Shown here one piece after another: positions 2,760 through 25,277 of a stretch of DNA of 43,413 nt. The first letter of the stretch is position 1; each line of letters starts with the position of its first letter. The translations under genes and the position numbers were made by a program. The stretch comes from Candidatus Shapirobacteria bacterium (GTDB taxonomy: Bacteria > Patescibacteriota > Microgenomatia > UBA12405). Below the pieces are notes generated by a model, which was given only the letters and a program-made list of their open reading frames with translations, was not told where the DNA came from and did no database searches. The stretch spans positions 8,793-52,205 of the forward strand of contig JAQVQI010000001.1 in NCBI GenBank assembly GCA_028701645.1, read 5' to 3'.

Positions 2760-2833
2760 GGGCCCATAGTCTAGTGGTAAAACATCTCAGTCGCACTGAG
2801 TCGTCGGCGGTTCAAGTCCGCCTGGGTCCACCA
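2760..2833 (+). tRNA. tRNA-Ala (anticodon CGC), CCA encoded
   Basis: Hand-folded cloverleaf. Acceptor GGGCCCA/TGGGTCC with the G3:U70 alanine identity pair. Anticodon loop GTCGCAC (U33, CGC, A37). T arm GGCGG-TTCAAGT-CCGCC. The D stem has one mismatch. Confidence 0.8.
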
Positions 2834-4365
2834 TGGTAAAACTTATAAAATCAATTACTAAATCTATTGGATATGGTGTCAAAAACGATCCAGAAATTGA
2901 TCGTCTCAAAAAAAAACATCCCAAATTTTTTAATTTTATAAAAAAAAGACTAACCAAAAATCACAAATATGGTCGACATCTCACTGTTGGGATTTTGGTC
3001 ACTCTTGTGTTTGTCTATTTTTTTTATGGTATTGTCCGTAGTTACATCGGCCAAGAAAGTCTAGTTCAATTTGACCTTCGAGTAATCAATTTATTTAGTT
3101 TGCTCCGTCATCCAAAACTTAACCAACAAATGCTTTTTATTACCTATCTGGCAAAAGGAGAAATCATCGTTGCTGGTTTATTGGTTTTTAGTATTATTCT
3201 TTTTTTACACAAAAGATGGCGATTATTATTTACTTTATTAATTTCTGTTGGTGTTGGAGAAATATTCGTCTGGATTATTAAAAACACTATCGATCGGCCA
3301 CGCCCATCTCTCGTCAACGCTCTTGTCGCCGAATCTTCATATAGTTTACCCAGTGGCCACACCTTTGTTGCTATCGCTTTTTATGGACTGTTAGTTTATT
3401 TTGTCATTCAGTCTAATAGAAACAAATTTTTAAAAATTATTAGTTTTATTTTTGGAATTTGTCTTATTACTCTGGTTGGATTATCAAGAATCTATCTTGG
3501 CGCTCATTGGCCATCAGATGTTTTTGCCGGAGTCGCTTTTGGGTCTGCCTGGCTATCTATTTTGATAACCTCTTTTAGAATCAAAAAGAAATTTAATCCT
3601 CCTAAAAAAATTCAAATTAATCTCAAACCCAAAACCTTACTTATTTCCAGTATTTTATTGGTTACTATTTGGGTGGTTTATATTTTTTATTTTTTTTATA
3701 CCCATCCATTAATAGAAAAACAAATTATTACTATTCCTAAAAAGACAATCGATATCTCTCAAATTACCACCCAACTTTTTAAAAACCTCCCCAAAATTAG
3801 CGAGTCAATTAGTTCAGTTCCGTCAGAACCAATCAATATTATTGTTGTTTCAGACCAAAAAACACTAGACAAAGCTTTTGTTAATTCTGGCTGGTATTTA
3901 CTAGACGAACCAAGTCTAAGTTCTTATACTCAAATTGTTACTTCTATTATTTTAAAAAAACCATACCCTCAAACTCCAGGACTTCCGGTATTTTGGGACA
4001 CTTTCCCTTGTCCATTTTCTTATGGACAACCAACTCATCCTAGTTCAATTAGCTCCCGACACCACATTCACTTTTGGGACACCAACTATATCACCCCTGA
4101 AGGCCAAACTATTTGGGTAGGTACAGCTCATTTTGATGAAAAAATAAAAAAGAAATTTAAAATTATTTTACCTTTTCACACTACTCAACTTATCGTTGAT
4201 GAAGAAAGAGAAAACATAAAAAACACCTTAGAAAAAAATGGTTTTCTTAGTTCATTTGAAAAAATAAATCTTACTGGACTTCTTTATGGCACCAAAAAAA
4301 GTGGTAACAATTTTCTTACCGACGGTCAAGCATATATTCTTTATTTAAAAGATGAGACAAGATAA
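2833..4365 (+). CDS. PAP2-family phosphatase (membrane) fused to an LssY-like C-terminal domain
   Basis: PAP2 motifs KNTIDRPRP, PSGH and SRIYLGAHWPSDV in a multi-TM N-terminal half. The C-terminal ~230 aa (HHIHFWDT..WVGTAHFDE) resembles my recollection of the LssY_C family. The ATG shares its A with the tRNA-Ala CCA end. Confidence 0.75.
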   Translation: MVKLIKSITKSIGYGVKNDPEIDRLKKKHPKFFNFIKKRLTKNHKYGRHLTVGILVTLVFVYFFYGIVRSYIGQESLVQFDLRVINLFSLLRHPKLNQQMLFITYLAKGEIIVAGLLVFSIILFLHKRWRLLFTLLISVGVGEIFVWIIKNTIDRPRPSLVNALVAESSYSLPSGHTFVAIAFYGLLVYFVIQSNRNKFLKIISFIFGICLITLVGLSRIYLGAHWPSDVFAGVAFGSAWLSILITSFRIKKKFNPPKKIQINLKPKTLLISSILLVTIWVVYIFYFFYTHPLIEKQIITIPKKTIDISQITTQLFKNLPKISESISSVPSEPINIIVVSDQKTLDKAFVNSGWYLLDEPSLSSYTQIVTSIILKKPYPQTPGLPVFWDTFPCPFSYGQPTHPSSISSRHHIHFWDTNYITPEGQTIWVGTAHFDEKIKKKFKIILPFHTTQLIVDEERENIKNTLEKNGFLSSFEKINLTGLLYGTKKSGNNFLTDGQAYILYLKDETR

Positions 4366-23694: not shown

Positions 23695-24058
23695 ATTTAA
23701 CACAAGTAGTTGCTGATGGATTAATTGATAACCTATCGGTATCAATCATTTTTCCACATCTTTCACATAAACCATATTTTCCAAGTTTTATATTTGTTAA
23801 TGCTTTTCTAAGTTGAACAATCCTTTTGCTTAAAAATTTAGCCTTAACTTCAGTCTCAAAATGCCCAATTTGTTCATCTAAATCTTCTTCAAGTGAATTT
23901 TCTAAAGTTCTATTATTATCCAAAAAAGGATCAGTACTTTTGAGGTCTTTTTTGGCCCTTTTTGACTTCAACAATTCTTTTTCTAAAAAATGTTTTATTG
24001 GCGATATTAATTTTTGAGGAAAACTAATTTTTTGTTTATCTTCTATTTTGTTTTTCAT
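23672..24058 (-). CDS. DksA/TraR-family C4 zinc-finger protein
   Basis: Coiled-coil N-terminus plus CERCGKMI..(N17)..CVKC. Confidence 0.8.
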   Translation of the reverse strand: MKNKIEDKQKISFPQKLISPIKHFLEKELLKSKRAKKDLKSTDPFLDNNRTLENSLEEDLDEQIGHFETEVKAKFLSKRIVQLRKALTNIKLGKYGLCERCGKMIDTDRLSINPSATTCVKCEKEKEA

Positions 24059-24716: not shown

Positions 24717-24747
24717 TTCAACCAAAAAACAATAATTAAGCTATAAT
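24717..24747 (+). promoter_or_regulatory. Candidate promoter of the tRNA-Leu array
   Basis: Perfect TATAAT at 24742-24747, 12 nt before the first tRNA-like fragment. Weak -35 TTCAAC with a 19-nt spacer. Confidence 0.35.
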
Positions 24748-24759
24748 AAACTACTTCAA

Positions 24760-24838
24760 GCCGAAGTGGTCCCGATAATCGGGATAAACTCCACTGGCAG
24801 ATTTACCCGCCGAAGCTCAAGCGAAGGTGGGCGTGCAC
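24760..24838 (+). pseudogene. tRNA-Leu 5' fragment (nt 1-29), copy 1, disrupted by two hairpin insertions
   Basis: GCCGAAGTGG[TCCCGATAATCGGGATAAACTCC]ACTGGCAGA[TTTACCCGCCGAAGCTCAAGCGAAGGTGG]GCGTGCAC aligned by eye to 25191-25219. Confidence 0.7.
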
Positions 24839-24872
24839 AAATCAAAATTTAATAGTACATTTAAAAACTTCA

Positions 24873-24922
24873 GCCGAAGTGGCGGAACTGGCAGACCTGC
24901 CTGCCGGCAGGCAGGCGCGCAC
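24873..24922 (+). pseudogene. tRNA-Leu 5' fragment (nt 1-29), copy 2, with a 20-nt palindromic insertion
   Basis: GCCGAAGTGGCGGAACTGGCAGA[CCTGCCTGCCGGCAGGCAGG]CGCGCAC. Outside the insertion it is identical to tRNA nt 1-29. Confidence 0.8.
24896..24915. repeat. Perfect 20-nt GC-rich palindrome CCTGCCTGCCGGCAGGCAGG
   Basis: Seen directly. Confidence 0.95.
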
Positions 24923-25190
24923 AATATAAACATGTTTTATGTATATGTATTAAAAAGTCTGAAGACTGGAACCTTTTACAAAGGGCTAACAAACAATATA
25001 GAAAAAAGAATTAAACAACATGAACAAGGTCAATGTTTATCTACAAAAAACATATTACCTATTACATTAATACATGTTGAAATATGCTCTTCTAGGTTAG
25101 AAGCCAGAAAAATGGAAAAATACTTAAAATCTGGTTATGGTCGTGAGATAATAGAAGAACTCTTAGAAAGAAACTTAAAAACCTAAATCA
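24923..25190 (+). mobile_element. Candidate GIY-YIG cassette inserted in the tRNA-Leu gene
   Basis: This segment separates the displaced 5' fragment from the intact tRNA. It contains only the GIY-YIG ORF. Confidence 0.4.
24932..25186 (+). CDS. Stand-alone GIY-YIG (URI-domain) nuclease, YhbQ/UPF0213-like
   Basis: 84 aa from MFYVYVLKS. GIY (FYVYVL), YIG (FYKGLT), conserved R (RIKQH) and E (KMEKYLK). The track start at 24827 would translate the tRNA-like fragment, so it was rejected. Confidence 0.85.
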   Translation: MFYVYVLKSLKTGTFYKGLTNNIEKRIKQHEQGQCLSTKNILPITLIHVEICSSRLEARKMEKYLKSGYGREIIEELLERNLKT

Positions 25191-25277
25191 GCCGAAGTGG
25201 CGGAACTGGCAGACGCGCACGACTCAAAATCGTGTGGTAGCAATATCATGGGGGTTCGATTCCCTCCTTCGGCACCA
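25191..25277 (+). tRNA. tRNA-Leu (anticodon CAA), class II, CCA encoded
   Basis: Acceptor GCCGAAG/CTTCGGC. Anticodon arm CACGA-CTCAAAA-TCGTG. Long variable arm. T arm GGGGG-TTCGATT-CCCTC. Confidence 0.9.

Follow-up and report, generated by a model that had tools for sequence, protein, structure and literature searches.

We studied a 43,413-nt stretch of AT-rich DNA (the window) from a genome of Candidatus Shapirobacteria (Patescibacteria; contig JAQVQI010000001.1, positions 8,793 to 52,205 of the forward strand). Here, a unit that consists of a gene for a small GIY-YIG nuclease and a partial copy of a tRNA, marked by a hairpin, sits between a tRNA-Leu gene and that gene's own promoter. All of the features at this locus are on the + strand. 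The intact tRNA-Leu(CAA) (25191-25277), which has an encoded CCA, was called by ARAGORN and matches the tRNA family of Rfam (55.8 bits, E = 8e-11). It is preceded by a 4-nt junction, ATCA (25187-25190), and then by the open reading frame (ORF) for the nuclease (24932-25186, stop codon included; 84 amino acids). Both genes were recognized in a preliminary description of this locus, and Pfam, ARAGORN, and Rfam agree with those calls. Upstream of the ORF are two interrupted copies of the 5' part of the tRNA, and upstream of those is a TATAAT box (24742-24747), which is the putative -10 box of the native tRNA-Leu promoter.

The copy next to the ORF (unit 2) begins with nucleotides 1-23 of the tRNA (24873-24895; the 5' strand of the acceptor stem, and the D arm as far as the D loop's end), which are identical to 25191-25213 at 23 of 23 positions. 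These are followed by a perfect 20-bp palindrome, CCTGCCTGCCGGCAGGCAGG, which we will call H (24896-24915; at the 3' end of the D loop), and by nucleotides 24-30 (CGCGCAC, 24916-24922), where the copy ends. A 9-nt linker, AATATAAAC (24923-24931), leads to the ATG; it contains no Shine-Dalgarno sequence. The linker is conserved in L001 and similar in L236 and L240, which are loci from relatives that we discuss below. H folds (-8 kcal/mol) into a stem of 8 bp that is capped by a CCGG loop, and it is the sole GC-rich perfect hairpin across the 43-kb window. The other copy (unit 1, 24760-24838) is interrupted twice. It contains nucleotides 1-10 (24760-24769), a 25-nt insert (24770-24794) with the 6-bp hairpin TCCCGA-TAA-TCGGGA, nucleotides 17-23 (24795-24801), a 30-nt insert (24802-24831) with the hairpin TTTA-CCCGCC...GGTGGG, and nucleotides 24-30 with one mismatch (24832-24838). 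A 34-nt spacer (24839-24872) separates the two copies.

The coordinates of the fragments and the three spacers (34 nt between the units, 9 nt from the copy to the ORF, and 4 nt from the stop codon to the tRNA) are as first described. The preliminary description also reported that both fragments reproduce nucleotides 1-29 and break at the same place. They do share a break, as both stop at ...GCAC|AA while the tRNA runs on as ...GCAC|GACTC, but the break is after nucleotide 30 of the gene, and GC-rich hairpins interrupt both copies, so neither is contiguous. The sequence GCCGAAGTGG occurs exactly three times in the window (at 24760, 24873, and 25191), and none of 100 shuffles attained this count. 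No fragments of the window's other tRNAs (Ala and His) were found. The TATAAT box is 431 nt farther from the tRNA than it is in empty alleles from relatives, and the GIY-YIG gene is the only ORF in this 431-nt insert; the length of a unit is about 318 nt. Between positions 24000 and 26000, Rfam (E ≤ 10) identified no ribozyme, intron, or known RNA besides the tRNA. As the tRNA is also uninterrupted, this rules out a group I intron in tRNA-Leu.

The ORF matches the GIY-YIG family of Pfam (PF01541) over residues 1-70 (49.8 bits, with a cutoff of 22.6; E = 4.5e-13), and it is the only GIY-YIG gene in the window. An alignment of 20 sequences shows no variation at Y5, Y16, G18, H30, and E62 and almost none at R26. 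A profile search of PDB found 1zg2 (1.5e-13), 1ywl (1.6e-11), and SLX1 (2.5e-5). In the AlphaFold2 model (predicted local distance difference test of 94.8), residues 2-9, 15-20, and 44-52 form a three-stranded sheet, and Foldseek ranked 1zg2 (UPF0213) first, followed by Slx1 (7cq3; TMq 0.68, 2.5 Å), 1ywl, and the catalytic domain of I-TevI; the N-terminal domain of UvrC was also matched. On this evidence, the protein belongs to the YhbQ/UPF0213-Slx1 branch of the GIY-YIG superfamily, rather than to Tev/Seg or UvrC. Its sequence and fold predict that it is a nuclease. The family is large: when clustered at 50% identity, 5,536 clusters have E ≤ 1e-10 and 23,500 have E ≤ 1e-3. The NCBIfam, PADLOC, and PHROGs libraries gave marginal matches only. 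The sole match among PADLOC's defense models was to UzuA (E = 0.0023, 30 residues), and a GIY-YIG homing endonuclease family from PHROGs matched the N terminus (E = 4.5e-4, residues 1-32). A phage collection gave only two weak matches, to unannotated Listeria phage records.

The GIY-YIG domain fills most of the protein, and no DNA-binding domain was identified; with 84 amino acids, there is no room for one. This bare catalytic domain is unlike the Tev/Seg type, so classical sequence-specific homing, as in the original view of a homing cassette, is doubtful.

A 119-amino-acid ORF that starts with GTG can be called at 24827-25186, but all of the homologs begin at a conserved MFYVY, so we reject the longer ORF. 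ORFs are over-extended upstream through H and the tRNA fragment because none of the frames of H contains a stop codon. Many homologs in the databases with 100-126 amino acids are N-terminal over-calls of this kind (P0001 has 117 amino acids). Once these over-calls are discounted, homologs are typically 77-100 amino acids long.

With a profile of the homologs, we retrieved 80 genome loci that encode them. In 42 of these, a tRNA on the same strand starts between -23 and +26 nt from the stop codon of the ORF. The tRNAs are of many types (Leu, Arg, Gly, Pro, His, Asn, Ser, Thr, Ile, Lys, Phe, Tyr, Gln, Glu, Ala, and Met), and the genomes are from Patescibacteria, Bacteroidota, Ignavibacteriota, and other bins. 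The preliminary description raised the possibility that GIY-YIG genes lie beside other tRNAs with 5' duplications, and they do: in 30 of the 46 loci that were tested, a repeat of the 5' part of the same tRNA lies shortly before the ATG, far above shuffled controls. As in the window, alignments show a GC hairpin that splits the upstream copy.

H itself also recurs. Among the 80 loci, 19 have H without any mismatch at 30-68 nt from the ATG on its upstream side, and 26 have it with up to 3 mismatches at any position. The loci with exact H are from Patescibacteria and Bacteroidota, and their tRNAs are Leu, Arg, Asn, Phe, and Lys; the carriers include Zunongwangia (a cultured member of the Flavobacteriaceae), Chitinophagaceae, Daviesbacteria, Amesbacteria, Levybacteria, Giovannonibacteria, and Jorgensenbacteria. 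The proteins at these loci are just 45-65% identical to our query, although H is exact.

These results bear on the simplest explanation of the locus, which is that a tRNA gene underwent an ordinary tandem duplication and then decayed, and that the small ORF beside it is unrelated. Tandem duplication of tRNA genes does happen, and unit 1 is clearly decaying. However, the arrangement of ORF, tRNA, and hairpin recurs at dozens of tRNA genes in different phyla, and so does an identical 20-mer, whose chance expectation in such short regions is about 1e-9. We consider this explanation to be effectively refuted.

Within the tRNA copies, H is usually in the D arm and mostly in the D loop (after nucleotides 9-14, 16-17, or 20-23), but in some copies it is found in the T loop, in the variable loop, or on one or the other edge of the anticodon loop. 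(We assigned these positions to loops and stems by eye, from the junction sequences.) At corresponding positions, other clades of the ORF have hairpins of other classes: GTCGCC-N3-GGCGAC, in place of the anticodon arm; CCCGCC-loop-GGCGGG; or a CCCGTTAGA motif. Both the class of hairpin and the position of H track the phylogeny of the ORF, and the position of H is a lineage-specific landmark. This does not fit with the original view of the fragments as inert fossils, as the hairpins are inherited along with the ORF lineage and one palindrome is identical across phyla. Furthermore, related ORFs are found in related tRNAs (Leu isoacceptors, Arg isoacceptors, or Cys), which fits homology-dependent spread; none of the 80 loci have near-identical ORFs in different types of tRNA.

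We also noticed some variations on the hairpins. In one clade of the ORF (L019, L027, L029, L034, L035, L037, L048, L066, and L079), a CCCGTTAGA-like motif replaces H at 10-25 nt before the ATG, and an adjacent tRNA is mostly absent; in L035 and L037, the motif is preceded by nucleotides 1-10 of a tRNA only. In L022 (at 3478 and 3654), L073, and L033, full-length copies of the tRNA carry H or two classes of hairpin in the D or anticodon loop, beside an intact gene. ARAGORN missed these full-length copies, so they are probably pseudo-tRNAs that annotation misses. In L209 (621 and 651) and L214 (572 and 601), a single 5' fragment of a tRNA carries two copies of H about 30 nt apart (at positions ~12-14 and 22-23), which indicates that H was inserted repeatedly into one pseudo-copy. 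Upstream of the ORF of L042, the TTTA-CCCGCC...GG(N)GGG hairpin that we described at 24802-24831 is nested in the center of H, which suggests that hairpin elements insert into each other's loops.

Is the cassette a variable feature of this tRNA gene? Via DnaB, which is encoded next to the tRNA, we fetched the orthologous loci of relatives. Four of these loci are empty, which answers a question from the preliminary description about whether clean tRNA-Leu(CAA) loci exist. In L241 and L243 (whose DnaB proteins are 96% and 89% identical to that of the window), the TATAAT box is followed by 13 or 14 nt and the intact tRNA-Leu(CAA), and tRNA-Leu(CAA) is also present in two further relatives (L242 and L244); no ORF, H, or extra fragment was found in any of the four. 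The tRNA-Leu of the window is identical to that of L241 through GGCAC, and the last three nucleotides of the ATCA junction (TCA) also precede the tRNA in L241. Three other loci are occupied. L001, whose ORF is identical at 83 of 84 amino acids (100% over residues 1-83 by tblastn), has one unit of the type of unit 2 and lacks 113 nt that correspond to unit 1 and its spacer. L240 (ORF 90% identical) has one unit, in which H has one mismatch. L236 (88%) also has one unit, in which a 5' module with the two-hairpin design of unit 1 is followed by the linker AATTCAAAAT and the ATG. So, at this orthologous site, the presence of the cassette is an insertion/deletion polymorphism. Within the occupied loci, the ORF is under purifying selection: the ratios of synonymous to non-synonymous codon differences are 10:1 with L001, 25:11 with L236, and 15:9 with L240.

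The comparison with L236 also clarifies the history of the window, which has two units, the first without an ORF. The module of L236 aligns with unit 1 and with the spacer's first 10 nt: the spacer starts with AAATCAAAAT, which resembles the linker AATTCAAAAT that precedes the ATG in L236, while the spacer's end, TTAAAAACTTCA, resembles the end of the ORF of unit 2, CTTAAAAACCTAAATCA. Unit 1 therefore appears to have lost about 230 nt of ORF, and its spacer is probably the remnant of a cassette, as the preliminary description had suspected. Judging from these alignments, unit 1 would be an older unit from the two-hairpin sublineage whose ORF was lost, while unit 2 is intact. Also, an acceptor-stem variant, GCCGAAAT...TCTTTCGGC, from the lineage of L236 and L243 is present in the fragments of L236. 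Partial copies are therefore derived from the resident tRNA, or were homogenized with it. As a side note, the relatives with empty sites have other small ORFs near tRNA-Leu and dnaB (one of 153 amino acids at L241:3393-3854, and four of 78-141 amino acids at L244:3376-4892), and this neighborhood is a variable spot.

The arrangement in the window also has a mirror form, in which the intact tRNA comes first, followed by the ORF and a hairpin-disrupted 3' copy. In 14 of the 20 loci with an upstream intact tRNA that were tested, a disrupted 3' part of the tRNA, or nearly the whole tRNA, lies just after the stop codon or overlaps it, and this architecture is as common as the form with the 5' copy. 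In both forms, the hairpin and the intact tRNA are always on opposite sides of the ORF (the hairpin is 5' in type I and 3' in type II, which is the mirror form). A flavobacterial lineage that is associated with tRNA-Arg has both forms, with H at the same position in the tRNA (L005 and L010 versus L024 and L031). L236 has a two-hairpin 5' copy before the ORF and also an H-bearing 3' fragment beyond the tRNA. This tRNA-Leu 3' fragment (L236:3344-3430; AGGTTCGA-H-TTCTCTCTTTCGGCACCA, with H in the T loop) is 42 nt past the intact tRNA and joins the native 3' flank, so that hairpin-marked fragments bracket the intact tRNA.

Tandem units are present elsewhere as well, which is in line with the suggestion that two rounds of insertion, or a tandem duplication, produced the two fragments in the window. 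In the cultured bacterium Zunongwangia atlantica (L010:2844-4182), four near-identical units of 316 nt, each with nucleotides 1-32 of tRNA-Arg, H, a linker, and an ORF of 78 amino acids, precede the intact tRNA-Arg(TCG). In Melioribacter, a contig of just 666 nt with a coverage of 753 (L065:1-666) is a collapsed array in which a 312-nt unit is repeated with 100% identity. This unit is of the mirror type, with tRNA-Cys, the ORF, and a 5'-truncated tRNA-Cys that has a CCCGCC-TTAG-GCGGG hairpin. The high coverage suggests that there are many copies or that there is an extrachromosomal form.

We propose that this locus is probably a selfish and mobile nuclease cassette that regenerates the tRNA gene that it occupies, with two tandem units in the window. 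Each unit would comprise a 5' pseudo-copy of the host's tRNA that is disabled by a GC-rich hairpin, a linker, and a gene for a YhbQ/Slx1-type GIY-YIG protein of about 80 amino acids, whose stop codon abuts nucleotide 1 of an intact version of the same tRNA; the unit would be placed downstream of the native tRNA promoter. The preliminary description already had the cassette regenerating the tRNA, and the presence of an intact tRNA beside a partial copy at dozens of genes agrees with this. In that description, the cassette carried nucleotides 1-29 and inserted after nucleotide 29. The mirror form is harder to reconcile with this fixed cargo, and nothing marks nucleotide 29 or 30 as the insertion point, as partial copies end anywhere from about nucleotide 25 to 71, depending on the locus. 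The variable ends and the mirror forms also led us to reject a fixed staggered cut at nucleotides 0 and 30 that produced a long duplication of the target site. Recombination with the resident tRNA fits these observations better.

More specifically, we infer that the cassette spreads and is amplified by break-induced homologous recombination, with the tRNA sequence as portable homology. A single crossover, or the equivalent synthesis-dependent repair, might occur between a hairpin-marked copy that is linked to the ORF and the resident tRNA. If the exchange were 5' of the hairpin, then the product would be pseudo-copy, ORF, and intact tRNA; if it were 3' of the hairpin, then the product would be the mirror form (intact tRNA, ORF, and pseudo-copy). 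Unequal events would yield arrays, and recombination between repeats would lead to precise loss and restore the empty site. The initiating break might be made by the nuclease at a DNA secondary structure, instead of at a long recognition sequence; the candidates are an extruded palindrome or the cloverleaf of the tRNA gene. A structured substrate is suggested by the kinship to Slx1, by the palindromy of H through its center, and by variants of H that are not compensated.

The cassette may also exploit the expression of the tRNA. We predict that a single transcript, from the native tRNA promoter, contains the pseudo-copy, the nuclease's mRNA, and the tRNA, and that RNase P frees the tRNA from it. 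If so, the host would retain its tRNA while the element would gain a strong promoter. The TATAAT box is kept at 13-17 nt upstream of nucleotide 1 of the tRNA in the empty alleles L241 and L243, and it is also found upstream of the 5' fragment in the occupied alleles L001, L236, and L240. Also, no terminator was found between the box and the tRNA. Both observations are in line with transcription from the native promoter. The claim that the only consensus -10 box is upstream of the first fragment was correct in that the TATAAT box is present there and is conserved. However, our scan for consensus promoters missed this box because it has no -35 match. The scan's sole hit was at 25124-25152, within the 3' end of the ORF. 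This is a weak promoter-like match (TTAAAA-17-GATAAT with a TG), and one match is below the chance expectation (2.7). It overlaps the codons for a conserved motif, KSGYGREII, so its conservation is uninformative.

In ten loci (L018, L020, L028, L037, L045, L053, L057, L060, L064, and L074), the stop codon of the ORF is the tRNA's own conserved T8-A9-G10. Cleavage by RNase P at nucleotide 1 of the tRNA would then yield an mRNA with no stop codon, which could limit the expression of the nuclease. A tight junction of another kind is found elsewhere in the window: tRNA-Ala(CGC) (2760-2833) ends on the first base of an ORF on the same strand (2833-4365, 510 amino acids).

Alternatively, the hairpins might act in RNA. 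The stem-loops could shield the end of the nuclease's mRNA that is not set by tRNA processing, or they might prevent the partial tRNA from misfolding with the functional tRNA or from misdirecting RNase P, and the cassette might be a domesticated host gene that is co-transcribed with the tRNA, instead of an element that is mobile at present. This would account for why the ORF always lies between the hairpin and the intact tRNA, and the T8-A9-G10 stop codons might be a brake on expression. Also, pairing is maintained despite changes in sequence (TCCGCC/GGCGGA in L236 versus TCCCGA/TCGGGA in unit 1 of the window), and the stem of the second insert of unit 1 (CCCGCC/GGTGGG) requires a G-U pair. 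On the other hand, it is the sequence of H that is conserved, and not its pairing alone. H is palindromic through its loop (GCCGGC), and it has one-sided variants with no compensating change (L240, L214, and L031), which implies that H is a site in DNA rather than a helix in RNA. Furthermore, H is found at sites that are unrelated to the nuclease's mRNA, including inside coding genes; no Rfam family besides tRNA matches the region; and the clean empty alleles in close relatives, along with the tandem arrays, speak against a fixed host function. We consider a primary role in RNA to be improbable.

The distribution of H is much broader than that of the nuclease gene. Exact H is present in 35 contigs from viruses and at least 120 from metagenomes, with GC contents of 29-71%. 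We sampled 169 viral and metagenomic H sites, and just 13 of these have a GIY-YIG start within 150 nt (5 sites) or another tRNA nearby (11 sites). Nevertheless, among the matches listed, no ORF family other than GIY-YIG turns up repeatedly next to H at unrelated loci. Orphan H is often in the loop of another inverted repeat (as in L132, L179, L200, and L232) or among short tandem repeats. It is also often flanked by direct or tandem repeats of 7-14 nt, as in TCTCGTCTCTCGCT-H-TCTCGTCTCTCGCT (L081, L083, L089, L099, L104, L118, and L161); these might be target duplications, or H might have inserted into repeat tracts. Within the tRNA copies, by comparison, the insertion of H is a clean addition of 20 nt with no duplication of the target.

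H has also entered protein-coding genes. In contigs with a GC content of 50% or less, 16 H sites are inside long ORFs, and 11 of these 16 are read in frame as LPAGRQ, among the matches listed. The examples include proteins that are similar to SecA (L197:1197), CopA (L208:12286), PheS (L124:5257), and AtpA (L154:389). As 20 is not a multiple of 3, the net insertion in the in-frame cases must differ from 20 nt, and these cases are probably selected derivatives. In two viral contigs (L105:2239-2330 and L082:8616), H is in the variable loop of a complete tRNA-Met(CAT), which ARAGORN calls as a tRNA of 92 nt; H may be tolerated there as an extra arm. H is not an artifact of sequencing or assembly, as it is found in isolates and metagenome-assembled genomes from many laboratories at specific positions in tRNAs, has natural variants, and has in-frame copies in conserved proteins. 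Nor is it a terminator, as it has no run of T and no terminator was called.

Several observations weigh against our proposal of a tRNA-regenerating cassette. First, about 20 of the 80 homologous loci have no adjacent tRNA, and 156 of the 169 sampled H sites have neither a GIY-YIG start nor a tRNA nearby. Recombination leaves the arrival of H at sites outside of tRNAs unexplained, and also the invariance of its sequence across phyla, while the other classes of hairpin vary. Second, an 84-amino-acid catalytic core has no obvious way to locate tRNA genes, and if the enzyme cuts intact tRNA genes, then the regenerated tRNA would remain a target. Third, the patchy presence of the cassette in Shapirobacteria could reflect repeated and precise loss of an ancestral cassette, rather than gain. 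Finally, it is possible that the promoter-like match at 25124-25152 is the tRNA's own independent promoter, although this has no statistical support.

Alternatively, H itself might be the primary mobile entity, as a miniature element similar to repetitive extragenic palindromic (REP) sequences or miniature inverted-repeat transposable elements, with the GIY-YIG protein as a structure-specific nuclease that acts in trans. The enzyme would cut extruded hairpins or cruciforms, and H would enter breaks in single-stranded loops at any location, by being moved or copied. The tRNA duplications and the placement of the ORF would then be by-products of the repeated repair of breaks at tRNA genes, which are highly transcribed and prone to form structures, and the autonomous copy would have its home base there. 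This explanation overlaps with our proposal, and its outcome would be more novel. It is consistent with the dispersal of exact H, with the recurrence of GIY-YIG, and of no other ORF family among the matches listed, beside H, with the clean 20-nt insertions, and with the frequent location of orphan H in the loop of another hairpin. The palindromy that extends through the center of H and the single-sided variants point to a DNA site, and the protein is in the Slx1 branch. However, a hydrolytic GIY-YIG enzyme is not able to rejoin DNA, so ligation or repair by the host would be needed; other clades of the ORF use other hairpins (GTCGCC-N3-GGCGAC or CCCGCC-loop-GGCGGG); and the mobility of H alone does not explain why the stop codon of the ORF abuts nucleotide 1 of the tRNA. 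We view this explanation of the locus as unlikely.

A related idea, which we put forward tentatively and which has a substantial chance of being correct, although below even, is that H is a 20-bp mobile DNA, among the smallest known, that is moved by a YhbQ/Slx1-type nuclease. This would be a new mobility system of a palindrome plus a nuclease. The autonomous form, H plus the nuclease gene, would persist at tRNA genes by regenerating the tRNA, and from these it would seed orphan copies of H, copied or ligated into the breaks, across phyla, including the in-frame LPAGRQ in essential genes, and the system would be distinct from HUH (REP/RAYT), DDE, recombinase, and classical homing systems.

If our proposal of a tRNA-regenerating cassette is correct, then these loci are a large and apparently undescribed class of selfish element that resides in tRNA genes and keeps the tRNA intact. 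It would also give a testable role to the enigmatic YhbQ/UPF0213 proteins of bacteria. The arrangement explains an annotation artifact, namely the N-terminally over-extended GIY-YIG ORFs beside tRNA fragments and pseudo-tRNAs. And it draws attention to a 20-bp palindrome that is base-perfect across phyla and has spread into essential genes with no known mechanism. As Zunongwangia and Melioribacter are cultured carriers, the mechanism is experimentally accessible, and Z. atlantica would be a tractable system.

How does the cassette relate to known systems? The preliminary description was not aware of any precedent. We did not find this exact arrangement described in the open-access literature, even when we searched for the palindrome as a string, but phage T4's SegB, which targets tRNA genes and makes tandem repeats, is a partial precedent that we return to below. 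In the literature that we searched, the function of bacterial YhbQ is essentially undescribed, and no linkage to tRNAs is reported. Along with YhbQ/UPF0213, the best relatives of the protein by sequence and fold are Slx1 proteins. Slx1 is a structure-specific endonuclease, which fits with action on hairpin or cruciform DNA, but Slx1 works with Slx4 and has a RING/PHD domain, whereas the protein from the window is a catalytic domain only.

Short GC-rich palindromes that are dispersed across genomes, few of them beside a small nuclease gene, and that insert with no target duplication, are known from the REP/BIME-RAYT systems (BIME, bacterial interspersed mosaic element) and from the IS200/IS605 insertion sequences. 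The RAYT and IS200/IS605 proteins are HUH/Y1 transposases, which cut and rejoin single-stranded DNA, and these systems have conserved guide and cleavage tetranucleotides. H resembles REP in its behavior only: it is dispersed, mostly orphan, and inserted with no target duplication. We identified no HUH/Y1 transposase, and the sole recurrent neighbor is GIY-YIG, among the matches listed, so H is not a member of these systems. No flanking target motif is evident at the H sites. In yeast mitochondria, mobile GC clusters adjoin free-standing endonuclease ORFs. The in-frame LPAGRQ insertions can be likened to Rickettsia palindromic elements and to the GC clusters of fungal mitochondria, but the sequences and the hosts differ, and we know of no link between either of these and duplications that regenerate tRNAs.

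Integrase-driven islands and prophages are similar to the cassette in that they have an intact tRNA and a partial duplicate, with tRNA genes as conserved and safe landing sites. However, those elements encode a tyrosine or serine recombinase, have attachment (att) sites, duplicate the 3' part of the tRNA, and are kilobases in length. The cassette encodes no recombinase, is about 318 nt, and duplicates either the 5' or the 3' part of the tRNA, and the copy has an inserted hairpin. As the GIY-YIG gene is the only ORF in the insert in the window, and as it is the 5' part that is duplicated there, the cassette is not an integrase-type element. A review of tRNA gene fragments covers only those that are derived from integrases and CRISPR (PMC9897764).

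The cassette behaves like a free-standing homing endonuclease gene, as it is present or absent at an orthologous site, but it does not have the C-terminal DNA-binding region, which is one of the features that define the Seg/Tev type. The nearest precedent is SegB, which is a GIY-YIG enzyme from phage T4 that cleaves within tRNA genes and recognizes a T-psi-C motif (PMC2330249). Double-strand breaks by SegB, followed by homologous recombination, lead to tandem repeats of a tRNA plus segB, and these repeats are aided by microhomology that the tRNA's 5' end shares with segB's 3' end (PMC13096335). Both systems have a GIY-YIG gene among tRNA genes (segB is free-standing in the tRNA cluster of phages T4/T6) and vary in presence between related genomes. 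SegB differs in having a recognition region for a 27-bp site, while the protein from the window is an 84-amino-acid catalytic core, and segB loci do not have a hairpin-disrupted copy of a tRNA or a conserved palindrome. Also, SegB is found in phages, while the cassette's hosts are cellular genomes (Patescibacteria and Bacteroidota). If our proposal is correct, then the connection between GIY-YIG nucleases, tRNA genes, and tandem amplification that is known from SegB would extend to cellular genomes.

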